Origin: Minisyncoccia bacterium
Lineage (GTDB): Bacteria; Patescibacteriota; Minisyncoccia; Phycocordibacterales; UBA9973
Length of the DNA: 64,000 nucleotides
Assembly: GCA_049287045.1 (NCBI GenBank)
Contig: JBAQFC010000010.1
Span: 14,179-78,178, forward strand
Direction: 5' to 3'
Below the pieces are notes generated by a model, which saw only the letters and a program-made list of their open reading frames with translations, was not told where the DNA came from and searched no databases. Made by a program: the position numbers and the translations under genes. Below, one piece after another: positions 10,823 to 26,832 of this stretch; the stretch's first letter is position 1, and every line of letters starts with the position of its first letter.

Positions 10823-10931
10823 AACCTATTCATATTATGGATAGGTTTTTTTATTTTTATTTTTTTAAAAAAATAAAACCCCATAATATTTTATATATTA
10901 TGGGGTTCTTTATTTAAAAAAAAGAATTTAA

Positions 10932-11996: not shown

Positions 11997-12011
11997 TTAT
12001 ATTTTCACCAA

Positions 12012-12053
12012 CACAATATCACAAAACCATTGACTAGTCAATAAATATTTGGT
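12012..12053. promoter_or_regulatory. Conserved bidirectional promoter/operator motif with palindromic TTGACtaGTCAA (copy 1)
   Basis: acaatatcacaaaaccattgactagtcaataaatatttggta is about 85% identical to 15790-15831. The palindrome gives face-to-face -35 hexamers with -10-like elements 17 nt away on both strands. Confidence 0.45.
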
Positions 12054-12100
12054 AGTGTAACGGTAATATTTAGTTGTTTGAAATAGTGGTTTAGAAGATT

Positions 12101-12154
12101 ATTCAGTGAATTTATCAGATTCTCTTAAAATAGAGCTTGATAAATTCACTGAAT
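12101..12154 (+). promoter_or_regulatory. Long perfect inverted repeat (16-bp stem, ~20-nt loop) in the 5' leader of the 12177 ORF
   Basis: attcagtgaatttatcag...cttgataaattcactgaat, 23 bp upstream of the ATG. Confidence 0.4.
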
Positions 12155-12176
12155 CTATAAACTAAAAAAAGAAAAC

Positions 12177-12554
12177 ATGAATAAAATATTCAATCAAGTA
12201 GATGATAGAGGGAAGCTCATCATTTCCGAGTTCGTTAAAGAGGAAAAGTTAGGCGTTGTTATTTATTTTAATCCTGAAGGCCGTATATTTTTAAGGGAAC
12301 ATTACAAAAGAATATATGATATTTGGATCGAAAAGGAAAATAATTTTACTGCTTTAATTACAGGAATATCAAAGGAAGGTACTCTAAAAGTGCAAATGTT
12401 AAAATCTGATAGAGAAGTGATAGAAGGATCTAATGATTGCTTGTATAAAAAATTCACTCCTCCTCTTTACCCTGATGGTGTAACAATAGAGGTACCAATA
12501 AATTTAATTAAAGATCTGGGTATTTTTAATACAAAGATCCTTAGTAAAATGTAA
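12177..12554 (+). CDS. Hypothetical protein (125 aa)
   Basis: ORF preceded by a structured leader. No recognisable domain. Confidence 0.35.
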   Translation: MNKIFNQVDDRGKLIISEFVKEEKLGVVIYFNPEGRIFLREHYKRIYDIWIEKENNFTALITGISKEGTLKVQMLKSDREVIEGSNDCLYKKFTPPLYPDGVTIEVPINLIKDLGIFNTKILSKM

Positions 12555-12626
12555 GTGAAAAATATAAATTATTTTAAAGAGGCAACGAGTAATCGGGCCT
12601 CTTTTTTATTTTCTTTAAACATTATT

Positions 12627-13070
12627 TTAATTTAAAAATCTCACAAAATCAGAAAGTATTGAATCGTTTTTTAAGTCTCCTTGTATTGATTTAGGTAATA
12701 TATTCGGATTGTCATTTTTGTCTACCCAACATATTTCTGAAAGTTCAAATCTATGGGTGCCACTTAGATTTTCTGTATCTAAGAAAGCTTCCGGGTTGGT
12801 AATTTCAAAAAAGAATTCAATAGATTGTTTTATCTCTTCTTCAATAAAATTATTTACATACAAGAGTCTTCCGATCTGTGGTTCAATTCCTAATTCTTCG
12901 ATAATTTCTCTTTTCATGGCATCGTGTATGTTTTCAGCATATTCAAGGTGTCCTCCAGGTAGAGAATAAAAACTAGAACTAGGAGCGTGTTTTACAACTA
13001 GAAGTTTATTGTTGTGAACAATAACAGCTCTGCACCTTATTACTATTTTTTTAGTTGTTTCGTTTGTCAT
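12627..13070 (-). CDS. Nudix hydrolase
   Basis: Nudix box LPGGHLEYAENIHDAMKREIIEELG. Confidence 0.7.
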   Translation of the reverse strand: MTNETTKKIVIRCRAVIVHNNKLLVVKHAPSSSFYSLPGGHLEYAENIHDAMKREIIEELGIEPQIGRLLYVNNFIEEEIKQSIEFFFEITNPEAFLDTENLSGTHRFELSEICWVDKNDNPNILPKSIQGDLKNDSILSDFVRFLN

Positions 13071-13149
13071 GTCTTATATTGTAACATTATTATAATTTTC
13101 ATAAATAGTGCCTTAGGCGTTATTTATTGTATCTATTTATAACCCAGAC

Positions 13150-13196
13150 GTGAAGTAATTGTGACCTAATTATAAGAAATATAAGGTGATTTGAAT
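13150..13196 (+). repeat. Degenerate cassette-repeat copy
   Basis: gtgacctaattataagaaatataaggtgatttgaat compared with gtgaccc...attgtaagtaatataaggggatttaggg. Confidence 0.3.
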
Positions 13197-13236
13197 ATTT
13201 ATATGAAAAATAGATAAAAATTGATAGAATGTAGTT

Positions 13237-13869
13237 ATGAATCATAAAAATTCTAATTGCACGATTTATATTGTCAGACATGGTGAGACTGAATTCAATG
13301 TTGCCAATATTATGCAGGGTCATACTGATTCACCATTGACTGAAACTGGAGTTAATCAGGCAAAAGCATTAGGTGAAGTATTTAAAGACATAAATTTTGA
13401 TGTCGTTTTCTCTTCAGATTCATTGAGAGCTCGACGGACAGCAGAATTTATTCTTTCTGATAAAAATTTAATGATTAATACATCAAAGATTTTAAGAGAA
13501 AGAAATTATGGAAAATATGATGGTGGAGCAGCTAGTATTTTTAGAGAGGAAAATAAAGATAAATTTGAAAAAATAAAAACACTTAATCGTTTCGAGAAAA
13601 GAATGATAAATATTACACCCGATGTTGAAAGTGATGAGGAAATGTACAATAGACTGGTTCCTCTTCTCAGGGAATTGGCTGTAGCACATACAAACAAAAC
13701 TGTTCTTGTAACTACTCACGGTGGTATTATTCGTGTATTGCTCAGTTATTTAGGATGGAGTGGTGAAGAAGACCTAAAATCTGGATCTGTAAAAAACACA
13801 GCATATGTTAAATTGTTTTCAGATGGAACAGATTTTATTATTGATGATGTTCAAGGAGTTGATAAATAA
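13237..13869 (+). CDS. Histidine phosphatase family protein (phosphoglycerate-mutase-like)
   Basis: RHGETEFN catalytic motif at the N-terminus and a TTHGG(I) motif near the C-terminus. Confidence 0.7.
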   Translation: MNHKNSNCTIYIVRHGETEFNVANIMQGHTDSPLTETGVNQAKALGEVFKDINFDVVFSSDSLRARRTAEFILSDKNLMINTSKILRERNYGKYDGGAASIFREENKDKFEKIKTLNRFEKRMINITPDVESDEEMYNRLVPLLRELAVAHTNKTVLVTTHGGIIRVLLSYLGWSGEEDLKSGSVKNTAYVKLFSDGTDFIIDDVQGVDK

Positions 13870-13872
13870 TAA

Positions 13873-14233
13873 GATGGCTAAAATATATGTAGCTGGTAAA
13901 AATCTTGAAAGAGCACGCTCTGTGATGGATATGTTAATAGAAAATGGTCATTTGATTATATTTGATTGGGTAAAAGATATTAAAAATGAAGAGGACCCTT
14001 TTCAAAAAGCTCGTGATGAACGTGAAGCGGTTAAACAAGCAGACATACTCGTTTATCTTTGGGAATCAGACCAAGAAAGTGCAAGATATGAAGCTGGTAT
14101 GGCGATGGGTCTACATAAACCCATTATAGTTTCTGGGTTTAAAAATAAATTATTTTTTCTATCCTTGCCAGAGGTGATAAATGTATTAGATGATAGTGAA
14201 ATTATTTCTGTGCTTGAAAAGATAAATTTATGA
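13873..14233 (+). CDS. Nucleoside 2-deoxyribosyltransferase-like protein
   Basis: KIYVAG N-terminal motif and ESARYEAGMAMGLHKPIIV, which parallels the NDT-family DSGTAFELGYA.GKP catalytic-Glu segment. Confidence 0.45.
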
Positions 14234-14268
14234 AAAAATTAGTAGAGCGGAGGCGTTGCTTCGCTCTA

Positions 14269-14326
14269 GACACAAACGGGACGGAATTGGGATCTGATTT
14301 TATGAATAAAAGGGGATTTAGAGTCT
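14269..14326 (+). repeat. Cassette repeat copy R1, preceded by a GC hairpin (14244-14268)
   Basis: cacaaacgggacggaattgggatctgattttatgaataaaaggggatttagag. Confidence 0.6.
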
Positions 14327-14371
14327 TAATTAGTTATGCATTAGCAAGTTGAATTCAGCCTTACGGTCAGA

Positions 14372-14399
14372 TTGACAATTATATTAAATATGCTATAAT
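14372..14399 (+). promoter_or_regulatory. Consensus promoter TTGACA-N16-TATAAT
   Basis: attgacaattatattaaatatgctataattg. A GGAGG ribosome-binding site (14433-14439) and the ATG at 14444 follow. Confidence 0.6.
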
Positions 14400-14443
14400 T
14401 GACTCAGGTAATTTTGCCTAGATCTTTTAAAAAAGGAGGAATA

Positions 14444-15052
14444 ATGTATCTCATTTCTGTTTGCACTGCCTCTGTTATTTTGATGGCTGGTAGTTTCTGG
14501 TATTGTTACCAGATTTTGCGTGAAGAGGTACATCCACCTCCCGCAACATTTATAATATTGTCCTTCACATTTCCACTTGCACTTTATTTGTATACTCAAA
14601 AGCCCGATTGGAGCTTTTCAGCAAATATTGGACTAACAGTTGGAGTTGTGAGTGTATGGGTAGTTAGTGTATTTCTAATCGCAAAGCTTTTTATCCAAAA
14701 GAAATTAAGCATTGAGGTAAATCTCTTTCAGAGAATAACGATATTAGTATCACTTATAATATTATTATTTTGGTTTATAACAAAAGACCAACTCACTGCT
14801 TATATCCTTCTTCAAATTTCTGCTCTTGTTAGTTATATACCAGTAATCAAAAATCTTTGGAATGCAGAAAAGAATCGTGATTCAATTATGTTTTGGGGTT
14901 CATTATTTCTTTCTACTTGTGTTGCTTCTTATGCCGCATATGAAAGAAATGATATCCAATCCTGGATTTACATAATTAGGGCGATTCCATCAACAATGGT
15001 AGTCCTATTAATGATGATTCGAATAGAATTAAGACAAAAAGCCTTGCGATAA
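14444..15052 (+). CDS. Integral membrane protein (6-7 TM; possibly PnuC-like nucleoside transporter)
   Basis: Multiple hydrophobic segments, preceded by a strong promoter and ribosome-binding site. Family assignment is speculative. Confidence 0.45.
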   Translation: MYLISVCTASVILMAGSFWYCYQILREEVHPPPATFIILSFTFPLALYLYTQKPDWSFSANIGLTVGVVSVWVVSVFLIAKLFIQKKLSIEVNLFQRITILVSLIILLFWFITKDQLTAYILLQISALVSYIPVIKNLWNAEKNRDSIMFWGSLFLSTCVASYAAYERNDIQSWIYIIRAIPSTMVVLLMMIRIELRQKALR

Positions 15053-15090
15053 CATCAAAAGGCTTTTTTTATTTCTAAAATGGTAAATTT

Positions 15091-15140
15091 GTGTCCTAAC
15101 AGGACGGAATTGGAATCTAATTTGTAGGGGATATGAAGGT
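15091..15140 (+). repeat. Cassette repeat copy R2 (divergent)
   Basis: gtgtcctaacaggacggaattggaatctaatttgtaggggatatgaaggt. Confidence 0.5.
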
Positions 15141-15250
15141 ATTTTGTTTATTAACTCACGATTATAGCTCTCAAATCTTTTTAATGTATGATATTGGAAA
15201 TAAAAAACTCCACTATTTTTTAGTGGAGTTTAATTTTAAAATTGTAGTAT

Positions 15251-15724
15251 TTACAAACGATAAACATCAGGAAATATTTCTTTTTTATTCTTCAATCTTT
15301 TTTCTATTTCGTTAAAAGGCAAATTTTGATTTTTCAGTTCTATGTAGGTTGGACTGTATGCTTTTATTTGTTCACAAAAACTTTCTCTGGAATTATGAAT
15401 TATTTGCAACATATCTCCAACTTTAAAAATGGATGGAATAAGACCATCATACGCAAATTTTTGCTGAGACCCGTGACTTTCAAAGTATTGAGGAATAACC
15501 TTGTTTAGAATAAAAGCCTTATCGTCTTTATTGCAATATTCATACTTACCTCTATCAAAAAGTTTACTGTCTCGAAAAAGATTAATCATAACCTCATGCT
15601 GATTTTCCTGACCCTTCGGCATAAAGTAGATACTTTTGATTACATCAAAAACCTTTTTCGTTTTACGGTTAAAAAAAAGTAATTCTTTGTCATGTAAAAT
15701 GACACGTATATTTTCTATGTGCAT
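15251..15724 (-). CDS. Hypothetical protein (157 aa)
   Basis: ORF with a downstream terminator hairpin (15203-15237). Divergent from the 15869 gene across the conserved promoter motif. Confidence 0.35.
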   Translation of the reverse strand: MHIENIRVILHDKELLFFNRKTKKVFDVIKSIYFMPKGQENQHEVMINLFRDSKLFDRGKYEYCNKDDKAFILNKVIPQYFESHGSQQKFAYDGLIPSIFKVGDMLQIIHNSRESFCEQIKAYSPTYIELKNQNLPFNEIEKRLKNKKEIFPDVYRL

Positions 15725-15789
15725 TTTTAAAAATATTAAGTTTTTATGGCAAAATTGCCTACAATATTATTTGTTCGAACAATATCACA

Positions 15790-15831
15790 AAATTATTGAC
15801 AGGTCAATGATTTATTGGTAATCTATTATAA
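15790..15831. promoter_or_regulatory. Conserved bidirectional promoter/operator motif with palindromic TTGACagGTCAA (copy 2)
   Basis: acaatatcacaaaattattgacaggtcaatgatttattggta. TTGACA-N17-TAATCT is present on the plus strand. Confidence 0.45.
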
Positions 15832-15868
15832 ATAAAAATAGTTTTTAATCAATTAAATATCGTAGAAA

Positions 15869-16639
15869 ATGAAACAGAAAAAAGCTTACATTGGTGTTAC
15901 GGGATTCATGTCTTCCCAGGAAATAACCGATACCCTTAGAGGTATTGATTATAAAAAAACAGACAGGTTGATTATGGTTGGTGTTCTTGCAAGTTTTAAA
16001 ACCTTGCAAGGAATTGCCAATAAATGGGTTAATCGTTATCCTTTAGTAAATGAAATTGCAGGTATTTTTCAACCAAATGAAAATTTCCTAAATTTGATTC
16101 ATTTTAATACTAAAGAACTGAATACATTTTTTGCTCAGCTTATTCAGATAAATGACTTAGCTGGTGATTCTTTTAATGGTTTCCAGTTAAACATTGCTTG
16201 GCCTGATCCTAAAGTATTAGAAAAATACAAAAGATTATGCCCTGACAAAAACATTGTTCTTCAAATTGGAGGAGGAGCCTTTGAAAAAATATCTCATTCT
16301 CCGGTAAAACTTGCAGAAAAAATAAACAATGAATATGCAGGTCTCATTGATTATGTTTTACTTGACCCAAGTGGTGGTACTGGAAAACAATTTGATCCAA
16401 TAGTTGCCAGGGGTTATTTGGAGGAATTAAGTAAACATGAAAATGACTTTGGTTTGGGTGTTGCCGGAGGATTAAGTTCTTCAACATTGAATCTGATTGA
16501 ACCTCTTGTTAAAGATTTTCCAAATATCAGCATTGATGCTGAAGGAAAATTAAGAACATCAGAAGATCATTTGGATGTAAATGAGGCAGGTTCTTACATT
16601 AAAAAATCTTTGGATTTATTTTCTATTTCAGTTATTTAA
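15869..16639 (+). CDS. Phosphoribosylanthranilate isomerase (TrpF)-like TIM-barrel protein
   Basis: C-terminal region LLDPSGGTGKQFD...GVAGGLSSSTL...ISIDAEGKLRT matches the TrpF motifs LLD..GGTGK.FDW, AGGL..N and D.SSGVE. Confidence 0.5.
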   Translation: MKQKKAYIGVTGFMSSQEITDTLRGIDYKKTDRLIMVGVLASFKTLQGIANKWVNRYPLVNEIAGIFQPNENFLNLIHFNTKELNTFFAQLIQINDLAGDSFNGFQLNIAWPDPKVLEKYKRLCPDKNIVLQIGGGAFEKISHSPVKLAEKINNEYAGLIDYVLLDPSGGTGKQFDPIVARGYLEELSKHENDFGLGVAGGLSSSTLNLIEPLVKDFPNISIDAEGKLRTSEDHLDVNEAGSYIKKSLDLFSISVI

Positions 16640-16701
16640 AAATCTCCCTAACAGGGAGTAAACCTATGGTACCAAAAGTATCATAGGTTTTTTTATTATC
16701 T

Positions 16702-16762
16702 GTGTGATTCAAACGAGACGGAATTGGAACTAGATTGTAGGAAATCTAAGGGGATTTAGGGT
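16702..16762 (+). repeat. Cassette repeat copy R3
   Basis: gtgtgattcaaacgagacggaattggaactagattgtaggaaatctaaggggatttaggg, preceded by two terminator hairpins. Confidence 0.6.
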
Positions 16763-16811
16763 TTTCAATTAAAGTGTGGCATTTGCTTATTGAGCTTGGA
16801 GTACTAATACT

Positions 16812-16839
16812 TTGACAAGTGCTGATTTTGTGCTATAAT
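16812..16839 (+). promoter_or_regulatory. Consensus promoter TTGACA-N16-TATAAT
   Basis: tttgacaagtgctgattttgtgctataatt. Confidence 0.6.
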
Positions 16840-16915
16840 TATCCTTAGATTAAAGGTGATGAAGCTACCTATAAATGATTCATAAATAAATAGTTTTTTA
16901 ACATTCAAATACGAA

Positions 16916-17551
16916 ATGCTCATGAAAAAAATTGAGAATGTCGGAAAGTTTGCAAAGCATACTACCGAAGCACATAATGCGCTTTTAAAAGCGATCCCAT
17001 CTTGGGTTTACGAAAAAAATATGCAATATGGAATTATTGGAAATAAAAACCTTCCGAATATTATGGAGGATGTATTTAGAAAAATTTATGAAGGAAGTAT
17101 TAGTTTTTCTTTTGGAATACGTCAAACATTCATAGATAGTGATATTCCAATGTGGCATAATGACTTTTTCTCATCTATTATTAGTGTTTCAGGACACAAA
17201 ATAATATCAACCAATGAAGTAGAAGAACTTTCTAAATATGTTGTATCAAAGACAGGAATGAATGATTCTTTAATCCAAGATAAAGTTAGAAGTGGATTTC
17301 TAGAAGAAGATTTATTTTTTGCAATTCTTTATCTTTTAATTTTCAAACCAGAATCTGGTAAAGAATTTTTAAACCTTGAATTAAAAAAGGATAAACTTTA
17401 TCTCTTCCATGTTAATTTAGATTCTCTAAAAAAAGTTTCGATAACAATATTCTGGAATGATGGTAAGTGGATGTTAAGTGCGACTGATTTTAATTTTATT
17501 TCTTCTTGGGATGAAGGACGCATCTTTGTTTATTTTTGTAGAAATTATTGA
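16916..17551 (+). CDS. Hypothetical protein (211 aa)
   Basis: Cassette ORF with its own promoter and a terminator (17570-17605). Confidence 0.4.
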   Translation: MLMKKIENVGKFAKHTTEAHNALLKAIPSWVYEKNMQYGIIGNKNLPNIMEDVFRKIYEGSISFSFGIRQTFIDSDIPMWHNDFFSSIISVSGHKIISTNEVEELSKYVVSKTGMNDSLIQDKVRSGFLEEDLFFAILYLLIFKPESGKEFLNLELKKDKLYLFHVNLDSLKKVSITIFWNDGKWMLSATDFNFISSWDEGRIFVYFCRNY

Positions 17552-17611
17552 TTCCTTAAAGAATCATTTTTAGAAACCATAATCCAAAAAAGGATTGTGG
17601 TTTTTTTTATT

Positions 17612-17668
17612 TGTGACCCAAATAGGATGGAATAGGAACTTTATTGTGTCGAATATAAAGGGCTTTAA
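17612..17668 (+). repeat. Cassette repeat copy R4
   Basis: tgtgacccaaataggatggaataggaactttattgtgtcgaatataaagggctttaac. Confidence 0.55.
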
Positions 17669-17794
17669 CTCTCAATTATGAAAATACTATTTTTTTGACA
17701 AGTAACCTTAAAAGTTGTAGTTTATAGTCAAACGTACCTTTATAAATATTTTGTGTATTTAACTAACAATACTAACAATTTAATAAATAGAAAA

Positions 17795-18460
17795 ATGAAA
17801 ACAAAAATCAAACTAATTTTACCTAACAATGGTATTGTTCTTAATTTACAGCAAGGAGAACGGCTTTACTTTTTAGCTGGTCCTATTAGTGGAGCCGGAG
17901 ATTGGCAGGCAAATGCAATAAAGATGTTAGCAGAAAAAGATCCTAATTGTTTCATTGTTTGTCCTTGTAGATATGATAATACTCATGAACTATTTCAGTT
18001 TTCATTACCACCTACCTATGATGAGTTAATAAGTGATGATGAAAGAGAAAGTCCAACAAGAACATTGCAGTTCCAAAATCAAACAATGTGGGAACGACAT
18101 TATTTAGAACAGGCATCTTACTTTGGTTCAGTAATTTTTTGGCTTCCTTCTGAAGATTCAGAAAATCCACGCAAGAAAGAAACTGGCCCGTATGCTCGTG
18201 ATACTTATGGTGAACTTGGTAGATGGAGCTTAAAAAGTTCAAAGCCAGATCAATTTTCAATTCATAATTACAAAGGTAAAATGGTTAACCTTACTATTGG
18301 TGCTGAAAAAGATTTTCATGGGTTAAGTGTAATTCAAAAGAATTTTGATGCTGACCATGGTGAACCTTTTCCAATTTATTCAACGCTTGAGGAAACTATT
18401 TCTGAAGCAGTAAAGCTTGGTAAAAAGACAAACCCGCAACCAATGATGATGAATGATTAA
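17795..18460 (+). CDS. Nucleoside 2-deoxyribosyltransferase-like / DUF4406-like Rossmann protein
   Basis: LYFLAGPISGAGDW plus ARDTYGELGRW, an NDT-like YLAGP ... DxGTxFELG pattern. Start set at the internal ATG at 17795. Confidence 0.4.
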   Translation: MKTKIKLILPNNGIVLNLQQGERLYFLAGPISGAGDWQANAIKMLAEKDPNCFIVCPCRYDNTHELFQFSLPPTYDELISDDERESPTRTLQFQNQTMWERHYLEQASYFGSVIFWLPSEDSENPRKKETGPYARDTYGELGRWSLKSSKPDQFSIHNYKGKMVNLTIGAEKDFHGLSVIQKNFDADHGEPFPIYSTLEETISEAVKLGKKTNPQPMMMND

Positions 18461-18526
18461 TTTTTTTTAACTAAATTTAAAACTGCAGTTTCCTAATGGA
18501 GATTGTGGTTTTTTTTATTTAAAATT

Positions 18527-18612
18527 TTAATACGCTTCTCGTGCTAGCACGTGATGGTGACCCAAACGGCACGAATTAGAACCAGATTGTAAGTAACATA
18601 AGGGGATTTCAG
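18527..18612 (+). repeat. Cassette repeat copy R5 (longest), with a 5' extension containing the palindrome CGTGCTAGCACG
   Basis: aatacgcttctcgtgctagcacgtgatggtgacccaaacggcacgaattagaaccagattgtaagtaacataaggggatttcag. The 5' part aatacgctt matches the flank downstream of tRNA-Glu at 26823-26831. Confidence 0.6.
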
Positions 18613-18620
18613 ACTTTTTA

Positions 18621-18649
18621 TTGCTAAAACATAAAATAAGTTGTAATGT
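18621..18649 (+). promoter_or_regulatory. Repeat-associated promoter TTGCTA-N17-TAATGT
   Basis: ttgctaaaacataaaataagttgtaatgt. Confidence 0.5.
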
Positions 18650-18700
18650 AAAGAAAAATTCAGTACTAACTGGAGCATTCGCTCTTTAAAATTAAATAAA

Positions 18701-19123
18701 ATGGAAAAGCACAATTCACATGGTCCATTCCATTTAGAAGATGGAAAAGTAATTAGCAAAGAAAAATGGCTTGAATTTTTTAAAGTTATTTTAGAAATGG
18801 AACGTTCAGGTTCAAATCATTTTGTATTTGATATTGGTATAGCTTGTTATTTTGATAATCTTTCTTATTATTCTGGTTTAAATAATAGAGAAAAATCACT
18901 TTTAAATCTCAAAAAAATGTTAGAGGAACTAATAATTACTTATAAGGTAAGTGAAAATGATGTTGATTCTATCTATAATTTAATTGATCTATTACTTGAG
19001 TGCCATCTTGAACCAGCTGGCTATAAAGTTTTTGCAAAGAAAGTGAAAGATGAAATTTGTCATATACCAAATTCTCGAAAGAAAGAAATTTTGGTTCTAA
19101 CTATTGATAAAAATTTTAACTAG
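18701..19123 (+). CDS. Hypothetical protein (140 aa)
   Basis: First gene of a two-gene cassette. Confidence 0.4.
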   Translation: MEKHNSHGPFHLEDGKVISKEKWLEFFKVILEMERSGSNHFVFDIGIACYFDNLSYYSGLNNREKSLLNLKKMLEELIITYKVSENDVDSIYNLIDLLLECHLEPAGYKVFAKKVKDEICHIPNSRKKEILVLTIDKNFN

Positions 19124-19147
19124 TACAAACAATCTAAATTAAAAAAA

Positions 19148-19573
19148 ATGTGGGACCATCGTAAAAATACAAGGAGGGAACATTGGTATATTTATGAAAA
19201 ATTACCTTTTAAGCCTCATCGTCCTGAATATGGTAAAGAAAAAATTATTTGGGAGACCGATATAATTATCGACCACGATACGACAGAATTTGATAAATAT
19301 AATTGTTTTGACGAGGTGTTGCGTGATAAAACTGAGCAATTCCTTGTGACAGATATTATTTATGAACCATTGTTTAATGATGGTGATAATTTTGGTAAGT
19401 GGGTAATAAAATTACATAAAATTGAAAATGGTAAGTTGACCAAAAAGTATCAAACAAGATATGAAAGTCGAGCATCATTATCAATACGTTTTGTAAAAAA
19501 AGCTAATTACAAAGAAGTATCAATAATGAAAGAGGAGTACATAACTCTTATAGTTAATTCAGACAAAAAATAA
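19148..19573 (+). CDS. Hypothetical protein (141 aa)
   Basis: Second gene of the cassette. A terminator hairpin lies at 19590-19608. Confidence 0.4.
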   Translation: MWDHRKNTRREHWYIYEKLPFKPHRPEYGKEKIIWETDIIIDHDTTEFDKYNCFDEVLRDKTEQFLVTDIIYEPLFNDGDNFGKWVIKLHKIENGKLTKKYQTRYESRASLSIRFVKKANYKEVSIMKEEYITLIVNSDKK

Positions 19574-19611
19574 TTTCAAAACCTTCCTTAAACAAGGAGG
19601 TTTTTTTATTT

Positions 19612-19668
19612 GTGACCCAAACAGAACGGAATTGGAACCTTATTGTAAGTAATATAAGGGGATTTAAG
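19612..19668 (+). repeat. Cassette repeat copy R6
   Basis: gtgacccaaacagaacggaattggaaccttattgtaagtaatataaggggatttaag. Confidence 0.6.
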
Positions 19669-19722
19669 ACTATGTTTACATATTAAGCTAGTATTTTCTG
19701 GTTTAAGTGGTATATTGTACTT

Positions 19723-20418
19723 ATGTCACAAGAATTTAATTTTAAACTTGAGCCAATACATACAACAAAAGATTTAGATGCATTAACAAAGTCTAATAAT
19801 CAAAAATACGGTGATTTTGACTCAAATACAAGGAGTCTTGATAAAAGATTTATAGATACATTCACAAATACACTAAAGGGTGAATTTAATAATGTAATTG
19901 TTTGTGGTGCAAATAAAGGAGAAGAAGTAAAAATTATAAAAGATATTAATCCAACCGCAGAGATTACAGCTCTTGATATTTCTGATGTTGCACTTGAGAA
20001 ATTACATAATACAGAAGGCCTCCAAGATGTAAAATGCTTACATAAAGATTTAGAGAATACAACTGCAAATGATAAACAATTTGATATATATGTTGCTCTT
20101 CGAACAATTCCATCATCAAATGTAGATATGGCAAAAGCTTTAAATGAAGCAATGAGAATTACAAAAAATAAAATAGTTCTTTCTGTTCCAAATGGATATG
20201 TAATTGATGGAAAGATTTTTAATGGAATGTACGAATATGAAGGAAAAACAATTGATAAAACTATCCCTTTCGAGATAAGGGAGGAACTAGCTAAGTATTT
20301 CGAATTACATGGCTGGGGTGTCACATATGGTGAATCAGATGGAGATCTTTTTATAACTGCTATTCCAACACCAGGAGAAAATGCACATATTCCTGATTCT
20401 CGAGCTAATTTAATTTAA
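19723..20418 (+). CDS. Class I SAM-dependent methyltransferase-like protein
   Basis: Motif I-like VIVCGANKGEEV, motif II-like ALDISD, and FDIYVALRTIP. Confidence 0.35.
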   Translation: MSQEFNFKLEPIHTTKDLDALTKSNNQKYGDFDSNTRSLDKRFIDTFTNTLKGEFNNVIVCGANKGEEVKIIKDINPTAEITALDISDVALEKLHNTEGLQDVKCLHKDLENTTANDKQFDIYVALRTIPSSNVDMAKALNEAMRITKNKIVLSVPNGYVIDGKIFNGMYEYEGKTIDKTIPFEIREELAKYFELHGWGVTYGESDGDLFITAIPTPGENAHIPDSRANLI

Positions 20419-20427
20419 TTTTTATCT

Positions 20428-20485
20428 GTGACCCAAACGGGACGGAATTGGAACCTTATTGTAAGTAATATAAGGGGATTTAGGG
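20428..20485 (+). repeat. Cassette repeat copy R7 (closest to the consensus)
   Basis: gtgacccaaacgggacggaattggaaccttattgtaagtaatataaggggatttaggg. Confidence 0.65.
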
Positions 20486-20563
20486 AATTTACAGAAATAA
20501 AAAGAGCCTCCCATGATTATGGCAGACTCTTATGTAATTAATTAAACTCACTTTATATAAAAA

Positions 20564-21160
20564 TTAAAAGCCAAGCTTTGTTCTGATTTCTTTTATAAAC
20601 TCAGGATTTCTATTTGATTCTTCAATAAAACATTTTGGTACACTTACCTGAAACTCAAAAGATGGAACATTTTTTTCATAGTGATTGTCTATATATCTCA
20701 AATAAACAGATATAGAGTGGAAAACTCTCCCTTCAAGTTTCATACTTGGCTTAACATTAAACAGAAGCCACATGTGAAAGTTTAATAGTTTTCTGTAAAA
20801 ATCCTCTCGTGCTAAACCAATGTGTGATTCTTCACTATAACTAATGTTGCATTGTTTTGTTGTTTTCAGAGAATTAATACCTATTATTCCATAGTTGTTT
20901 TCGAGATTCTTGTCAACTACTAAGATTTTGCTCATAGCTTTTGGAGCTTCAAAAAGTGTTGTACTATATACATCTCCATGTGAACGACGGAATAATTCTT
21001 TTACTCGAGATCCAGATGATTTATTAATATTAAATCCCATTAATCTTAAAATGGATTCTAGTTTTGGTTCTATCGAATATTTCGATTCAACCATTGCATA
21101 TCCATTCCATAAGCCAGTTTGATTCAACATGGCAGTTTCTAAAAAGTTTTTCTTTTTCAT
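20564..21160 (-). CDS. Hypothetical protein (198 aa)
   Basis: Cassette ORF on the opposite strand, so the repeat lies 3' of this gene. Confidence 0.4.
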   Translation of the reverse strand: MKKKNFLETAMLNQTGLWNGYAMVESKYSIEPKLESILRLMGFNINKSSGSRVKELFRRSHGDVYSTTLFEAPKAMSKILVVDKNLENNYGIIGINSLKTTKQCNISYSEESHIGLAREDFYRKLLNFHMWLLFNVKPSMKLEGRVFHSISVYLRYIDNHYEKNVPSFEFQVSVPKCFIEESNRNPEFIKEIRTKLGF

Positions 21161-21303
21161 TTTATATTTATTTAATTGTTAGTTATTAGGTTACCTTTAC
21201 TTCCTTAAAGAAGCATAGGAAACCCAATAATGAGAACAAAAAATAAAAATATCAAAGAACTATCACTAGATGTATGATAGCATAATTAAGTTAAAAAGTC
21301 AAG

Positions 21304-21361
21304 GTGACCCAAACGGGACGGAATTGGAACCAGATTGTACGGAATATAAGGGGATTTAGGG
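21304..21361 (+). repeat. Cassette repeat copy R8
   Basis: gtgacccaaacgggacggaattggaaccagattgtacggaatataaggggatttaggg. Confidence 0.65.
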
Positions 21362-21368
21362 TCTTCTG

Positions 21369-21397
21369 TTGCTAAATCATATAATAAATTGTAATGT
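21369..21397 (+). promoter_or_regulatory. Repeat-associated promoter TTGCTA-N17-TAATGT
   Basis: ttgctaaatcatataataaattgtaatgt. A GGAGG ribosome-binding site lies at 21419-21423. Confidence 0.5.
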
Positions 21398-21429
21398 AAA
21401 ATAAAAGTAAATTAAAAAAGGAGGTAAAA

Positions 21430-22044
21430 ATGGAATATATAGCTACAAGAAATCGTTGTGCTGTCATATTAAATTCATTAAATCTGCCAATCTCAAATGA
21501 AGAAACCTTAAAAATATTAAAAATAAAAGGTTTTGAAAAAAAAGAAGTAGATCTAATTGAATTAGCTAGACAGTGTATTGGTAAATCACAATATCGGCGA
21601 GGTGTAAAAATTTCTGAGGCTCCTGCAGTTTTAGACTGCTCTAGTTTTATGAAATATTTATATTCTCAACGTGGAATTTGGTTACCAAGAAGATCAATTC
21701 AGCAACGTGAATTAGGAGAAATTATTAAACTAGAAGAAGTTTTGTTTGGTGATTTAATTTTTATTTCTGGTTGCATTGATTATTACATTGATAATCCTTT
21801 AGATGGGGTTGGACATGTTGGAATTGTAGCTGATAAAAATACTGTTATTCATGCTGCCAATAGAAAGAATGGAGTTATAGAATCATCAATAACTGATTTT
21901 GTTGGAAAAGAAAAATTTCGTGGGGCAAGGAGATATGTTCCTAATGGTATTGAGGTTATCACTTTAACTGTTCCTTCTAACAGAGACGTTGAATTTTCAG
22001 ATGATCTAAGGTGGATTGTTTTACAATCTTTACCAAGAATTTGA
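21430..22044 (+). CDS. NlpC/P60 family cysteine peptidase
   Basis: Catalytic Cys context DCSSFMKY, His context GHVGIV, and a third polar residue VIHAAN. Confidence 0.6.
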   Translation: MEYIATRNRCAVILNSLNLPISNEETLKILKIKGFEKKEVDLIELARQCIGKSQYRRGVKISEAPAVLDCSSFMKYLYSQRGIWLPRRSIQQRELGEIIKLEEVLFGDLIFISGCIDYYIDNPLDGVGHVGIVADKNTVIHAANRKNGVIESSITDFVGKEKFRGARRYVPNGIEVITLTVPSNRDVEFSDDLRWIVLQSLPRI

Positions 22045-22092
22045 TCTGATCTAAAGTTCTGGGCAAAATAATTGTCCAGAACTTTTTTATTA

Positions 22093-22121
22093 TATGCTTC
22101 TCGTGCTAACACGTGATGGTG
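22093..22121 (+). repeat. Truncated cassette repeat R9, marking the right boundary of the array
   Basis: tatgcttctcgtgctaacacgtgatggtga matches the 5' extension of R5 (18530-18558) and then diverges. It is preceded by the terminator of the NlpC/P60 gene. Confidence 0.55.
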
Positions 22122-22277
22122 AACTCTATGTTAAGTTCTTTAATGACCTTGTAAAGATAATATTTAACTTTGAAAAACCATTAAATTATCAGGTTTTGCA
22201 ACAAGAGATGCTTCCCGTTTCTTCCCTTAATGGTATTTAAATACAAGGCAAATACATTTTAAAAATGTATTGTGTAT

Positions 22278-23228
22278 TTAAACCTTTTTTGGTTTATCGT
22301 ATGTATAAAGAAATTGTGCAACTTTATTAAGTTCTATGAGTAAATCTTTATTTTTGTGAAAACCAAAATTAAGAGACCTCATTAAGTTGTAAATATTTAT
22401 GGTGTGTATTGCTCCTTTGTTGTTGGTTATATCTTTTCTGTTAACTTTTTTCCCTGACTCCTGATTAGGATATCGTGCAATGATTACAATTCTTGGGCTA
22501 AGAATAAAAGTTTGTTCTCTGGATAGAAAATCATTACCAAAAAATTCTTTACTGAGGGCTATGTCTTGATAAGGTGTGTCTGTAGTAATAAAATCTCCAT
22601 TTCTTGAAACATATATTTTCCAATATTTTGCTGTAAGTAAATTACAAAACCCTTGCATATCTTTCATAATCCGTAAATGATGCATATTACCAAAATCAAC
22701 AGAGTACTCACCTTTATTCGCAAATTCAGTCATCTCTTCTTGCGTTATACCTAGTTTATCCATTTCAGCTTTTGTTTCTGGATTTTTATCCATAAAAGGA
22801 ATAGACATCTTACTAATTTCCTTTACAAAATACTCTGACATACTCTTAGATTCTTCCCTGTATTTTTTACCCTTAAAATGCAAAAACAACATACACTGAG
22901 ATAGATTAAATTTATCTCCTTCTGTAATTTGTGCATTATCTAGGATCTTCTTTTCAATTTTTGGCAATTCAATAGAAAAAATACCCTCAATTTCTGTAAA
23001 CCTTTCTTCTATTATTTGGCTAGTTTTATCTGCTTTTCCTGTATGTTGAGCATAGAAGAAGTTTTCAAAACAAAATCTAATTGGGTTTGATTTGTTATTA
23101 AATATTTTAAGTTGTGGGGGTTCTTTGTTTTCTATCTTTACAGGGTAAAAACTTTCATCTTCATCACACCATTGACGCAGATAGAATTGAGGAACATAGT
23201 GTTGCTTTTTTGTTGGTTTCTTTTCCAT
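22278..23228 (-). CDS. DUF4238-family protein (N-terminal HYVPQFYLRQW motif)
   Basis: The HYVPQFYL signature near the N-terminus is characteristic of DUF4238 (PF14022) as I recall it. Last gene of a three-gene minus-strand operon. Confidence 0.5.
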   Translation of the reverse strand: MEKKPTKKQHYVPQFYLRQWCDEDESFYPVKIENKEPPQLKIFNNKSNPIRFCFENFFYAQHTGKADKTSQIIEERFTEIEGIFSIELPKIEKKILDNAQITEGDKFNLSQCMLFLHFKGKKYREESKSMSEYFVKEISKMSIPFMDKNPETKAEMDKLGITQEEMTEFANKGEYSVDFGNMHHLRIMKDMQGFCNLLTAKYWKIYVSRNGDFITTDTPYQDIALSKEFFGNDFLSREQTFILSPRIVIIARYPNQESGKKVNRKDITNNKGAIHTINIYNLMRSLNFGFHKNKDLLIELNKVAQFLYTYDKPKKV

Positions 23229-23248
23229 ACATATAATTTTTTGCTGAT

Positions 23249-23545
23249 TTAATAGGGTTCATCTACTGTGTCCACAGTGGATAGGTTATCAAGAACATTC
23301 CCCATGTCTTCATAGGAAGACCATGCATAATCTCTTGCTTCTTCAATAATTGAATTAGCGTCCTCAATATTATTATTGGCTTCCTCAAGAGCATATTGAT
23401 ATTCTTCAAGTTGGCTTTCCTGTGAGGAAATTCTATCTTCCAACATAGCCCTTTCTCCATGGTTAGAACTTCCAGATGACCAAGAGATAATGAGTAAGAC
23501 CAGTAGGATGATTGATGTGTATTTGTATTTATTATCTGTTTCCAT
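23249..23545 (-). CDS. Small membrane-anchored or secreted acidic coiled-coil protein
   Basis: N-terminal hydrophobic segment ILLVLLIISWSSG followed by an acidic heptad-like region. 21 bp from its neighbour downstream and 8 bp from its neighbour upstream. Confidence 0.4.
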   Translation of the reverse strand: METDNKYKYTSIILLVLLIISWSSGSSNHGERAMLEDRISSQESQLEEYQYALEEANNNIEDANSIIEEARDYAWSSYEDMGNVLDNLSTVDTVDEPY

Positions 23546-23552
23546 AAATTAT

Positions 23553-26378
23553 TTATTCTTCTTTATTGGCTTCAAATTCTTCTTTTTCCTCTCTTAATCT
23601 TCTTACATAGTCTTCATCACTTCTCGCTATATCTATATCCAAGTGCTTGATTTCTTTCTTGCAGAATTTCTTTACTCTTTTATTTTTAGTTTTTTGCATT
23701 TCCTCGTTAAGGCTATTTCTTAAAGCTCTTAAAGCATTTCCATGAATATTATCCTCAGGGCTTCCTGATAAAACTCCTGTGCTTCTCATTCTACCACCTA
23801 CCGTATTCCAAATTTCTTTATTATCTGTAGCAGCAACTATTTTGAAACAAATATCAAAATTAGGTGTTTCAATAAGAGGAAAAAGAGATAAGACCTTTTT
23901 TAGGTTTATTTCTTTTTCGCTGGCAACAAGTTCTTCTAATACTTGGGTAAGTGCATTACCACCAATTTCATGAATAAGTTTTCCTAAGTCCATGGCATAT
24001 AAATCTCTACGCTCATTTACCTTAGAAATCCAAGTTTTTAACACTTTAGGATATTTCGGGTGGTCTTTAATCAAATCAGCAATATCAGTTGAAAAATGAT
24101 ATGGGAATGCAATGTATCTTGTTTCAGGTTGTTGTGCTTCTCTGTTTAGTCGTCTGCTATAGATAGACATCATCAATTCAAAATCCACCTTACCAATTCC
24201 GTTAATAACTTGTTCGTGATTATAGTCTAACTCTTGTGCTTCAACTGCTAAATCAGCCAACTCTTTGAGTTCTTCTGGTGTCCAATCTGAAAGTTCTATC
24301 CACTTAAAATGAACAGCTGTACCAATGTGGTCAAAAAAAGACTTTTCAAACTTAGGCTGACTTTTCATTTGCTCTAATAGTAATTTTCTGAAAACTTTAG
24401 GGTTAGATTCATAGAGATATGTAATGCATCTTCCAATTTGGTATTGAAGCCTTGAGTTTTCTTTATCTAGGAAAGAGAAATTATTTTGAGCCTTAGAAAT
24501 ATCAACAATTAAAGCAATGTCTTCTTTTCTTATATTTAAATCATCTCGTTTTCTCATTTCAAAGGATTGGAGTAGTTGAATGGTCAATTCAATTGATTTA
24601 TCTCTTTTAGCTTGGTTTGCATATTTATCCCATAGAGAGAGTGAACTGATTCTCAAGCCAAAGATAAAACTTCCTGCAAATAAATAAAGATCGCTTTTGT
24701 CTTTGTATATTTTCTGAAGAAATTTGTCTGTTAATTTTGGTTTACTTTTTCCTATTCTTGCCAAAAAATCACGGAATATATTAAAATGCCAATCCTCGGT
24801 ATTGTCCTTAAAAATACTTATCTTTTCCAATGTCTTGCACCATGAGTCAAGATTTTTTTCATTTATAGACTCTAAGTTACCTTTAATTTTTTCCTCTCTT
24901 TCTTTTTCTACAACATTATAGTCAGCGTCAATTCTTAAACGGTGTGGCTCTCCTACAAAGAGTCTATAAAGACTATAGTCATTTTTTGATGAACGCAGAG
25001 TTTGTAAAAGTTTTTCGTGGCCAGGTATAATACGCTTCCAAACTTTAAGCAAAGCAAGTTGACACTCTACTTCATAAACTACAGGAAAAGAATCTATAGG
25101 GTTTCCTTTTGGGTTAAGTACAATTTTTTTATATTTTCCAATAATATACTTTGCCTCTTCATCAAGCATAGAACGGAAAGCATCCTCTGCGTCACTGTCA
25201 GCAAATCCATGGTCTGGTAAATGAAAGACCCTTGAAAGACTCTTCAGGGCTTGAATTTTATTAGGGAAATTACTGCTATGTTGAATTATTTCTAATAGCA
25301 AATTAATTGAATCTTTTCTTATTTTCATTAGATACGGGGTAGCTTGAAGTGCTCCTATGTGAAAAGTGATTGTTCTCATATCCGGATTTGAAGTACCTTC
25401 AAAATCAGGTTCTAGGAGGTTTCCAAGAATCACTACTACCAAGTTTTCTATTTTTTCATCTCTCAAAGATAAAGGCTGCTCCAGAGAATCAAAGAGTATT
25501 CTTTGGGGTCCATACCCTATAGAATTCAGAACGTGGAAATTGTATTTAGAAATAGAAAGTATAACCTTTTTTGCTTGTTCCCTTATCGTTTCTTCTTTGT
25601 CCATAAGAAAGATAAAAAGGGCTTCAATAACTTTTTGTGTTTCTTGATAAGTAATTTTTTCTAAAAGTTTAATATAAGAAGATTTAGAGTCAGTATCTCC
25701 GTACTGTCTTATCTCGTTTGCAATTGAAAAAGCCAAATCTATTAATGGGAATCTTCCAGTATTTGTTCTGTAAAAAACTAATTGCTCTAGTGTTGCTAAT
25801 CTTTCCGCAGCTATGCGTTCTTGAGGAGTGCCTTTGCCAAGATCTTTAAGATATTTAGAGATTATTTTATCGTTAGATTCATTTCTGTGATGGAGGCAAA
25901 TCTTTTTCCACTCCTTGGGGTAATTTTTTTCTGTCTGGGTTATTTTGTTCTTTTCAATGAAATATATTGAAATAGTATGACTTGGAATTTGCTCCTTTTC
26001 TGCTAAGTAATTATTAATAAACTCAGGAGACAAATACGCCCAATAAGCTAGATTTTTATTGGGGTCAACCCCAATAAGTAAAACTGGTGTTGAAGAATCA
26101 TGAGCGTGCGCTAAAAGAGTTGGTTTGCATGTTGTGAATGGTTTCCCATTTTTAGTATATAAAAGTGGCTTTACTTGGACTTGTAGGGATAAACCAGACA
26201 TCTCCCTAGAATCTGTTAATAAGTGAAAATAGCCATCAATATTAGGAAAGTCATCATCTCCACCAGTAATCTGAGATATTACAGAATCATTCAGTAATAT
26301 TTCTAAAACAGCATTTTCTTTCTTCTCAATGCTTTTACTTTTGGAATATTTAGCTTTTCTTAAAATTTGCTTAGCCAT
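23553..26378 (-). CDS. Large (941 aa) protein with an N-terminal DUF4365 / PD-(D/E)xK-like nuclease-fold domain and a C-terminal alpha-helical repeat region
   Basis: N-terminal DFPNIDGYFHLL...LQVQVK...LLIGVDPNKNLAYWAYL matches the DUF4365 pattern (D.GiDg ... QvK ... yw). No Walker A motif. The remaining ~750 aa are helical and repetitive. Confidence 0.5.
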   Translation of the reverse strand: MAKQILRKAKYSKSKSIEKKENAVLEILLNDSVISQITGGDDDFPNIDGYFHLLTDSREMSGLSLQVQVKPLLYTKNGKPFTTCKPTLLAHAHDSSTPVLLIGVDPNKNLAYWAYLSPEFINNYLAEKEQIPSHTISIYFIEKNKITQTEKNYPKEWKKICLHHRNESNDKIISKYLKDLGKGTPQERIAAERLATLEQLVFYRTNTGRFPLIDLAFSIANEIRQYGDTDSKSSYIKLLEKITYQETQKVIEALFIFLMDKEETIREQAKKVILSISKYNFHVLNSIGYGPQRILFDSLEQPLSLRDEKIENLVVVILGNLLEPDFEGTSNPDMRTITFHIGALQATPYLMKIRKDSINLLLEIIQHSSNFPNKIQALKSLSRVFHLPDHGFADSDAEDAFRSMLDEEAKYIIGKYKKIVLNPKGNPIDSFPVVYEVECQLALLKVWKRIIPGHEKLLQTLRSSKNDYSLYRLFVGEPHRLRIDADYNVVEKEREEKIKGNLESINEKNLDSWCKTLEKISIFKDNTEDWHFNIFRDFLARIGKSKPKLTDKFLQKIYKDKSDLYLFAGSFIFGLRISSLSLWDKYANQAKRDKSIELTIQLLQSFEMRKRDDLNIRKEDIALIVDISKAQNNFSFLDKENSRLQYQIGRCITYLYESNPKVFRKLLLEQMKSQPKFEKSFFDHIGTAVHFKWIELSDWTPEELKELADLAVEAQELDYNHEQVINGIGKVDFELMMSIYSRRLNREAQQPETRYIAFPYHFSTDIADLIKDHPKYPKVLKTWISKVNERRDLYAMDLGKLIHEIGGNALTQVLEELVASEKEINLKKVLSLFPLIETPNFDICFKIVAATDNKEIWNTVGGRMRSTGVLSGSPEDNIHGNALRALRNSLNEEMQKTKNKRVKKFCKKEIKHLDIDIARSDEDYVRRLREEKEEFEANKEE

Positions 26379-26830: not shown

Positions 26831-26832
26831 TG

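Follow-up and report, generated by a model that had tools for sequence, protein, structure and literature searches.

A route of integration, decay and accretion is documented for ICEs (integrative and conjugative elements) and IMEs (integrative and mobilizable elements) (PMC5704250), and a three-element island of the staphylococcal cassette chromosome (SCC) type with a pseudo-SCC has been reported (10.1101/336396). Tycheposons of Prochlorococcus carry replication genes, and a minority of them use large serine recombinases (LSRs) (10.1101/2020.12.28.424599). Clusters of attC sites without an integrase are mentioned in PMC5737381. The subject of the present analysis is a row of nine small gene cassettes, each delimited by one copy of a conserved repeat, on the 3′ side of a tRNA-Glu gene in a stretch of 64,000 nt (the window) from a Minisyncoccia bacterium (assembly GCA_049287045.1, contig JBAQFC010000010.1, positions 14,179 to 78,178); window coordinates are counted from the first nucleotide of this stretch. 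Candidate-phyla-radiation bacteria have tiny genomes, and gene gain and exchange among them are little known. A non-exhaustive search of the literature for Patescibacteria combined with gene cassette, recombinase and tRNA found no paper.

The results presented below indicate that the array most likely consists of recombinase-less, mostly single-gene cassettes that were added successively beside tRNA-Glu. The repeat itself probably combines the crossover core with the arm on the element side (P′) of an attachment site used by tRNA-Glu-specific LSRs, a family common in Patescibacteria. Related loci used for comparison are designated by L followed by a number.

The repeat array and the 3′ end of tRNA-Glu

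Copies of the repeat were located over the whole 64-kb window by direct-repeat finding and with an nhmmer profile. Nine complete copies of ∼60 nt were found between positions 13140 and 21365, every one on the plus strand and with nhmmer E-values of 3.5e-8 to 2.5e-19, and no copy was detected elsewhere in the window even at E≤50. Conservation extends across ∼57 nt, and a 28-mer of the repeat occurred three times at ≤3 mismatches compared with 0.00 expected in shuffles; the base composition of the window is AT-rich (30–35% GC). The eight positions listed in the initial annotation proved to be correct, and a ninth complete copy absent from that list, R0, was found at 13140. R0 (13140–13199, +; E = 3.5e-8) is the most degenerate copy, with 75% identity to an independent consensus of repeat family A, and occupies the distal end of the array where it adjoins a NUDIX gene (12627–13070, −). 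Proceeding toward the tRNA, it is followed by R1 (14269–14326, +; E = 1.1e-9), R2 (15095–15147, +; E = 2.2e-10), R3 (16703–16765, +), R4 (17611–17671, +), R5 (18555–18617, +, or 18531–18617 with its left arm, termed X), R6 (19610–19671, +; 95% identity to the independent consensus), R7 (20426–20489, +; the top-scoring copy with E = 2.5e-19 and 96% identity to the independent consensus) and R8 (21303–21365, +), the last of which is followed by a ‘head’ of ∼100 nt (TTGCTAAA..TTGTAATGTAAA). A truncated copy had been noted at the tRNA-proximal end of the array. This feature, R9 (22094–22122, +), is real, although its similarity to the copy at 18531–18561 is confined to the left arm, ATGCTTCTCGTGCTAACACGTGATGGTGA; it is composed of the X arm and GGTGA with no P′ arm, its likeness to the repeat ends inside the core, and it forms the right end of cassette 8. 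The reading of R9 as a complete but diverged copy was rejected on the score of the right-side alignment, 26 versus 24.7±7 for random sequence.

The tRNA-Glu(CTC) gene is located at 26832–26904 on the minus strand (ARAGORN; 60 bits in Rfam). Its 3′ end does resemble the repeat, as had been noted: the repeat consensus scored 19–24 against most antisense tRNA-Glu ends, only 15–21 against two weaker antisense tRNA-Glu ends, 10–20 against other tRNAs and 10–18 against the sense orientation. The proposal that the repeats are reiterated copies of the tRNA 3′ end and its flank was not sustained, since only a core of 5–12 nt, TTTGTGACCC(TA), is common to both; the non-core part of the repeat differs from the tRNA and shows a 4+1-nt insertion relative to it. 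Likewise, the sequence aatacgctt, previously taken for a duplicated tRNA flank, belongs to X, a separate conserved arm at the right end of cassettes. Other identities were also considered for the repeat and rejected. Rfam matched tRNA-Glu alone, both at the gathering threshold and at permissive E-values, when the repeat was considered as a structured RNA or single-stranded DNA element, and a dispersed repeat of the repetitive extragenic palindrome (REP) or miniature inverted-repeat transposable element (MITE) type was rejected on finding no hairpin and no scattered copies in the 64-kb window or in contigs of 203 kb and 253 kb.

Exact-pattern scans of genome contigs yielded one true locus, L003, and one chance match inside a coding sequence, L002. 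Scans of metagenomes yielded 42 stretches, ∼30 of which are genuine, with 11 of the 42 set aside as chance matches in GC-rich coding DNA. The pattern had no match in IMG/VR viral contigs. The genuine copies form three sequence families with GTGACC-N8-ACGGAATTGGAAC in common. In each of the ten loci that contain tRNA-Glu (CTC or TTC), the repeat is situated 0.5–5.4 kb downstream of the tRNA 3′ end and in the orientation seen in the window. Taken over some 35 loci of other Patescibacteria, its position was consistently 0.5–7 kb downstream of tRNA-Glu. Several loci are syntenic with the window, being flanked by MurE/PBP on one side and by tRNA-Glu and RmuC on the opposite side; MurE and the tRNA are ∼2.4 kb apart in L003 and 21.8 kb apart in the window, and the content of the tRNA-Glu hotspot amounts to ∼2.4 kb in L003, ∼4 kb in L059 and ∼22 kb in the window. 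A check for dispersal revealed no copy outside 13.1–22.2 kb of the window and a single stretch in each of the 203-kb and 253-kb contigs. In L046 the whole segment from tail to tRNA-Glu (2538–11558) is inverted relative to RmuC and ExoX when compared with the window (26832–29193), L003 and L019.

Junctions and large serine recombinases

Directly downstream of tRNA-Glu the window contains a conserved non-coding ‘tail’ (26655–26831, +) that ends ..ACGCTTTT|GTGACCC. When empty and occupied sites were compared, all four combinations of the tail or X arm with the tRNA or the repeat were observed, in addition to the end of an LSR gene joined to the tRNA. The tail|tRNA junction is present in the window and L039, the tail|repeat junction in L046, L021 and L003, the X|tRNA junction in L059, and the X|repeat junction at R5 of the window and in L031, L034 and L053. 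The junction between the 3′ end of the LSR gene and the tRNA was read base by base in L021, L046 and L049, and from the tRNA flank and coordinates in L051. Wherever a junction was read base by base, divergence sets in on either side of GTGAC, which in the tRNA spans the first base of the trailer, the discriminator and the final three bases of the acceptor. This exchange of arms at GTGAC supports the initial proposal that the repeats are attachment (att) sites through which site-specific recombination targets the 3′ end of tRNA-Glu and that they mark cassette boundaries. The tail in the window would be the B-side arm of an unoccupied attB.

The X arm (ATGCTTCTCGTGCTAGC..TG) has five true occurrences in four loci, is at a fixed distance of 4–5 nt from the core, and is unrelated to the end of the LSR gene. 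The left side of R5 reads GCTTCTCGTGCTAGCAC at 18534–18550, then GTGATG, then GTGACCC, an X|P′ junction such as the attP of a circular cassette would be expected to have. The tRNA genes themselves differ at the 3′ end, those beside an LSR gene or X arm reading GGGTCACCA with an encoded CCA and those beside the tail or unrelated flanks reading GGGTCACAA or GGGTCACAC. In L053 (3127–3190) a terminator beside a minus-strand cassette is bracketed by the core in inverted copy (GGGTCACAAATT ... AATTTGTGACCC), a hint of inversion or of insertion in reverse orientation.

The partner sites of serine integrases have an identical central dinucleotide of 2 bp and half-sites with partial dyad symmetry. The crossover at this locus is narrowed to the 5 nt GTGAC, and the left arms (tail, X, LSR end and T-runs) show by eye no clear symmetry with P′ or with the tRNA-side arm, B′. 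The repeat carries a GGAAT..GAACC motif like that of the tRNA T-arm but shifted by 5 bp: measured from the G of GTGAC, the start of GAACC is at 23 nt in 49 of 52 repeats and at 18 nt in the 14 tRNA-Glu genes having GTGAC. In attB of serine integrases the motif of the zinc-ribbon domain (ZD) is nearer to the centre, by 5 bp, than its counterpart in attP (Rutherford et al., PMC3783163), a rule that the +5 offset of GAACC between repeat and tRNA matches. The 5′ half of the repeat is therefore read as a P′-type half-site and the acceptor and T-arm of the tRNA as B′; judged by position in the sequence, GAACC would be the motif bound by the ZD domain.

In five related loci the DNA between the repeat and tRNA-Glu is a mobile element with a rolling-circle Rep and an LSR. 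The element of L021, 5.4 kb in length, has the order tRNA-Glu, LSR (Resolvase, Recombinase and Zn_ribbon domains), rolling-circle Rep, cargo and repeat, and its LSR open reading frame (ORF) extends into the antisense of the tRNA. Six loci (L046, L048, L049, L051, L052 and L053) were fetched with the LSR protein alone and independently of the DNA pattern. In L046, L049 and L051 the 3′ end of the LSR gene is on tRNA-Glu and the repeat is at the far boundary, in L052 the LSR gene is bracketed by the repeat and tRNA-Glu, and in L053 four tandem repeats are located beside a Rep and LSR element. The far-end repeats of L046, L049 and L052 were detected with E-values of about 1e-7 to 1e-8, and that of L051 was weak. 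In all, an LSR gene is next to a junction in L021, L023, L046, L049, L051, L052 and L053. The LSR frame crosses the junction such that its last ∼10–13 codons are tRNA sequence (L021, 5512–5552; L046, 11484–11512; L049, 11487–11527). The enzyme implicated by the related loci is thus an LSR, and the attachment-site features of LSRs that could be tested are present in these loci.

The LSR family numbered 1,744 matches at E≤1e-30, one member being named as Candidatus Nomurabacteria. In L048 a homolog abuts tRNA-Ala and no such repeat is present there. This close homolog is at tRNA-Ala(GGC) (10001–11520), and a second gene with a Recombinase domain is found at tRNA-Ala(TGC) (16615–17795). The family seems to have been retargeted between tRNAs.

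The initial annotation had found no recognisable integrase in the window, a statement borne out by analysis of 53 ORFs with Pfam and phmmer and by tblastn with LSR and Rep queries. No domain of the Phage_integrase type was present among the 53 ORFs scanned, and tblastn at E≤10 returned only noise from the window, with no pseudogene remnants of LSR or Rep. In the ORFs scanned of related loci no tyrosine recombinase was found beside the repeat; serine recombinases were present.

Turnover, cargo and surroundings of the array

Variation at the level of cassettes was evident in L059, a relative with RmuC 91% identical and flanks of 75–81% nucleotide identity, which has two family-A repeats and five small genes at the same site, none homologous to cargo in the window. 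Its tRNA-proximal unit of ∼1 kb comprises the repeat, head promoter, a gene for 231 residues, terminator, X and tRNA, so that both junctions of this unit are present with no recombinase. No homolog of any cargo ORF of the window was found among the related loci compared. Across loci, repeat-to-repeat spacing is 508–2042 bp, the size of a single gene. The copies in the window are also graded: across R0–R8, identity to the family-A consensus, which for this comparison was built solely from other metagenomes, rises from 0.75 at the distal end to 0.93–0.96 in the copies close to the tRNA (Spearman 0.85, p = 0.003), and profile bit scores along R0–R8 give a rho of 0.97. This gradient fits tRNA-proximal insertion with decay of old sites. 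Three other contigs of the same population are 99.97–100% identical and collinear with the window, as expected at such identity.

The nine units of the window are each 0.75–1.6 kb and mostly single-gene, with one site delimiting each. Terminator-like sites number 14 in the region of 12.9–22.4 kb versus 3.4 expected, a four-fold excess. A terminator before each copy, as had been reported, holds for six, which have one ending ≤45 nt upstream of the repeat start (R0, R3, R4, R5 including its X arm, R6 and R9); among these are the terminators at 16660–16690 before R3, 17572–17605 before R4 and 19583–19600 before R6. Near-consensus promoters within cassettes were also verified, in that two perfect 12/12 matches to TTGACA-N16-TATAAT follow repeats, one at 14372–14399 downstream of R1 and the other at 16812–16839 downstream of R3. 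The ∼100-nt promoter and leader head of R8 occurs in addition after R5 and in cassettes of L043 and L059, with different cargo, and the cassette at 3179 of L053 was judged by eye to have the same TTGTAATGT leader. Cargo is found in both orientations, as stated initially, with genes at 15251–15724 and 20564–21160 on the minus strand; two of the repeat copies run into the 3′ end of a minus-strand gene.

Cassette 0 encodes a histidine phosphatase (13237–13869, +; His_Phos_1, 6.7e-46) and an NDT-like protein (13805–14233, +; weak Nuc_deoxyrib_tr match, 3.5e-4). The 217-residue ORF of cassette 1 (14399–15052, +), labelled earlier as a membrane protein, has no Pfam match, and neither do the two ORFs of cassette 2, which encode 157 residues (15251–15724, −) and, divergently, 256 residues (15869–16639, +). 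For the latter, a previous ‘TrpF-like’ label is left without support by the lack of any Pfam or PDB sequence match. Cassette 3 carries a hypothetical protein of 211 residues (16916–17551, +) with no Pfam family, for which an identical Logan contig of 1045 bp exists, cassette 4 an NDT-like protein of 235 residues (17753–18460, +; weak Nuc_deoxyri_tr2 match, 2.5e-4), and cassette 5 two hypothetical proteins of 140 and 141 residues (18701–19573, +). The product of cassette 6 is a class-I S-adenosylmethionine methyltransferase (19723–20418, +; Methyltransf_11 and Methyltransf_25), that of cassette 7 a hypothetical protein of 198 residues (20564–21160, −) with a 100% match to WA057_05765, which assigns the window to a metagenome-assembled genome of Candidatus Magasanikiibacteriota, and that of cassette 8 an NlpC/P60 peptidase (21430–22044, +; Pfam, 2e-16). 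Pfam accordingly agrees with the NDT-like, methyltransferase and NlpC/P60 labels given before, the two NDT-like matches being weak. Elsewhere, homologs of the cassette 7 protein adjoin rve transposases.

Genes of nucleoside and nucleotide salvage cluster in and beside the array (PNP_UDP_1, two NUDIX, the histidine phosphatase and the two NDT-like genes), and the hotspot cargo of L003 likewise includes a salvage gene, Ppnp (4275–4547). The cassette genes of L003 at 4275–4547 and 5059–5322 look by eye far more GC-rich than the AT-rich flanks and backbone, and a foreign origin would fit such cargo in a conserved cassette frame. Hotspot cargo of other loci (L053, 5068–8564; L039, 3603–5422) includes a retron-type reverse transcriptase, a NOV_C/PD-T4-1-like protein and an AbiL-like ATPase with DUF4276, and the tRNA-Glu site is therefore also a hotspot for defence genes. 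On the distal side of the array, the region of 6.2–13.1 kb has no counterpart in the relatives L003 and L059, and positions 6241–13070 may represent older cassettes with decayed repeats. A protein of 369 residues encoded in this region (7005–8114, +) matches deoxyhypusine synthase (DS, 7e-27), a family known mainly from archaea and eukaryotes. An ORF of 214 residues at 43715–44359 (−) has an IS200-like Y1 transposase domain (Y1_Tnp, 1e-8); it is 20 kb from the array and has no link to the repeat.

Between R9 and the tail are three co-oriented genes (22278–26378, −) for which Pfam identified a DUF4238 protein, an ORF of 98 residues and a DUF4365 protein of 941 residues with the nuclease-like domain at the N-terminus. 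These genes look like a defence-type island, for which PADLOC returned only a weak REase match, and the island may be the newest insertion. Its left boundary is R9 without a P′ arm, an atypical junction.

The tail, ∼190 nt, is conserved across genera, with a hairpin in which pairing is kept despite differing sequence, an TTTTCCAGCCCCGG block and a terminator. It occurs elsewhere in L003 (4590–4812 and 5390–5585), L020 (13400–13620), L021 (11215–11012, −), L039 (2445–2601) and L046 (4040–4200), and it begins with an X-like motif and a degenerate core (GTGGTCACAAG). The tail could be a small RNA, a non-coding cassette or a long form of the cassette right arm. Its identification as LOOT RNA (RF03000) was rejected, the only match being a marginal one in L014 (4688–4805, +; 47.2 bits versus a gathering score of 46.4) to a segment 143 nt downstream of tRNA-Glu, while neither the L003 tail nor the L021 tail matched the model.

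Mechanism, alternatives and relation to described systems

In the proposed mechanism, a cassette unit would comprise the core and P′ arm, in most cases a promoter of its own, then one or two genes with a terminator, followed in some units by the conserved right arm X. Small circles bearing X|core|P′ would be integrated beside tRNA-Glu by an LSR supplied in trans, and cassettes would be inserted successively with each insertion displacing older ones away from the tRNA. Old sites would then decay while the genes could remain expressed from their own promoters. We infer that the LSR family acts on recombinase-less cassettes, that these move as small circles and that insertion is tRNA-proximal. 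A further proposal, which we advance tentatively and at less than even confidence, is that the array represents integron-like gene capture in Patescibacteria based on an LSR instead of a tyrosine integrase, wherein minicircles of ∼1 kb integrate in trans at the 3′ end of tRNA-Glu and each regenerates a usable target. Each minicircle would contain a one-sided P′ site of ∼60 bp, a single gene with its own promoter and terminator, and a short X arm.

Several findings weigh against cassette accretion by an LSR. The window is devoid of a recombinase of any kind by Pfam, phmmer and tblastn, and the order of cassettes is unchanged in contigs of near-identical metagenome-assembled genomes (99.97%). 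For canonical serine integrases, attP and attB are the only pair of sites accepted, and because of this, building of the array by insertion beside an occupied X|tRNA or terminator|tRNA site would imply a relaxed requirement for recognition of the left arm. The X arm is unlike the P arms on the LSR side, the left arms of most copies are mere terminator T-runs, and the ∼57 nt conserved in the repeat exceed what is needed for a half-site of ∼25 bp, with the distal ∼30 nt conserved as well. Homologs of one cargo protein, that of 198 residues, have no flanking repeat elsewhere. The segment of 22.1–26.65 kb, which intervenes between R9 and the unoccupied tail|tRNA, breaks a simple order of accretion.

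An alternative origin of the array is a graveyard of full-size Rep and LSR elements of 4–7 kb, each reduced to a cargo gene and its far junction in the manner by which cis-mobilizable elements (CIMEs) form and accrete, the repeats being scars. Full elements bounded by the repeat and the tRNA do exist, in L046 a degenerate repeat stands between a small cassette and a full LSR element, the decay gradient indicates that sites go unmaintained once inside the array, and the ICE/IME literature provides a precedent (PMC5704250). However, nine precise deletions would be needed, each sparing promoter, gene and terminator and leaving no trace of LSR or Rep by tblastn at E≤10. Moreover, the units are uniformly small (508–2042 bp) in many genomes, and the dedicated X arm recurs, is unrelated to the LSR gene end and in L059 abuts the tRNA itself. 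The uniform small size and the X arm favour inherently small units, and we regard derivation from decayed full-size elements as unlikely. An origin by homologous recombination or local duplication would require no dedicated enzyme, the repeat and ∼100-nt head serving as portable homology for the gain, loss and swapping of cassettes by RecA-type exchange, or for local duplication with gene replacement. Between some units the repeat and head do amount to 100–160 nt at 77–95% identity, in L003 the shared unit of terminator, tail and repeat exceeds 250 nt, and a window without a recombinase is in accord with such exchange. Against this, the breakpoints of all junction classes read base by base are inside the same 5-nt core, LSR elements have the repeat as their far junction and, as their near one, the end of the LSR gene on the tRNA, the offset of the motif by 5 bp is given no meaning, and older copies, 75–82% identical over 57 nt, are poor substrates. 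Homologous exchange is accordingly considered improbable.

The repeat could instead be a cis-regulatory or RNA element (an operator, UP element, small RNA or REP/MITE repeat) rather than a recombination site, for which its usual position 40–100 nt upstream of a promoter and the conservation of the distal ∼30 nt would speak. That it has such a role alone is very improbable in view of its occurrence at one locus per genome in a fixed orientation to tRNA-Glu, its coincidence with the insertion boundary in comparisons of empty and occupied sites, and two copies that face the 3′ end of a minus-strand gene. RNAalifold on the nine copies found no pairs on either strand, and two hand-drawn hairpins were 56–62% paired over 44 copies from many genomes, not clearly above slid controls. 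As regards a classical integron or a cluster of attC sites lacking integron integrases (CALIN), with attC sites recombined as folded single strands by a tyrosine integrase encoded elsewhere, the mostly single-gene units with an element of ∼60 bp and no integrase nearby are suggestive. An attC site is an imperfect palindrome (R″-L″...L′-R′) conserved in structure and not in sequence, whereas the present repeat has no such palindromic structure and is conserved in sequence. The site is also at the 5′ end of each unit, the units have their own promoters, and in related loci the ORFs by the repeat include serine recombinases and no tyrosine recombinase; a classical integron is thus scarcely credible.

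The tRNA-Glu hotspot, between the cell-wall (Mur/PBP) genes and RmuC, carries accessory genes in small uniform units. If integron-like capture by an LSR is correct, arrays of expressed accessory genes grow in ultra-small genomes with apparently few routes of gene gain. Mobilization in trans by the LSR family would constitute a second and mechanistically independent route to cassette arrays alongside integrons, and would provide a short directional attP/attB pair on a universal tRNA sequence, of practical interest in the design of serine-integrase tools. Independently of mobility, the 5-bp offset in ∼50 natural sites supports the structural model of discrimination between attP and attB.

The closest described systems each share part of this organization. 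In composite SCC islands at rlmH/orfX, a single conserved gene receives elements at its 3′ end through large serine recombinases (Ccr), tandem elements are separated by short direct repeats of integration-site sequence, and some units, the pseudo-SCC, have no ccr or other recombinase and rely on supply in trans. The SCC target is a protein-coding gene in contrast to the tRNA gene end here, and SCC units are 10–60 kb as opposed to ∼1 kb, mostly single-gene and with their own promoters; the site described here is ∼57–60 nt, one-sided and conserved in sequence across genera, and the hosts are Patescibacteria. Tandem accretion of CIMEs and ICE/IME elements (the ICESt1/ICESt3 family and streptococcal tRNA-Lys islands) likewise produces att-flanked units without an integrase. 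Those systems employ tyrosine integrases with identity segments, and CIMEs are large elements that have decayed, with generally one or two at each site; the window differs in having nine small units of uniform size, a dedicated X arm and no remnants of decay. Tycheposon islands resemble the array in growing beside tRNA genes of a streamlined genome by repeated integration at the same site, with newer elements pushing older ones inward and with partial-tRNA repeats and degraded elements remaining. The repeats of tycheposons are partial tRNAs, whereas tRNA sequence contributes only 5–12 nt of the present repeat and the rest is element arm. Tycheposons are multi-gene elements with integrases, and that paper contains no description of a regular array whose units are single-gene, bear promoters and lack a recombinase.

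The initial comparison with an integron or tandem island is supported at the level of architecture, in that mostly single-gene units lacking a recombinase are delimited by one site each. As in sedentary chromosomal integrons and CALINs, units of 0.5–2 kb with one ∼60-bp site each are arranged in a row that has an age polarity and diverse cargo turning over between relatives. Distinct from integrons, the 64-kb window has no IntI tyrosine recombinase, attI or Pc promoter; the site is linear and conserved, without an attC hairpin, and heads the unit instead of trailing it; the units have their own promoters and terminators; and the anchor is a tRNA gene. Overall, the locus is regarded as a novel form of accretion in tandem at a tRNA hotspot, which differs from the described cases in its tRNA-end target, its ∼1-kb promoter-bearing single-gene units, its one-sided conserved site and its host group.

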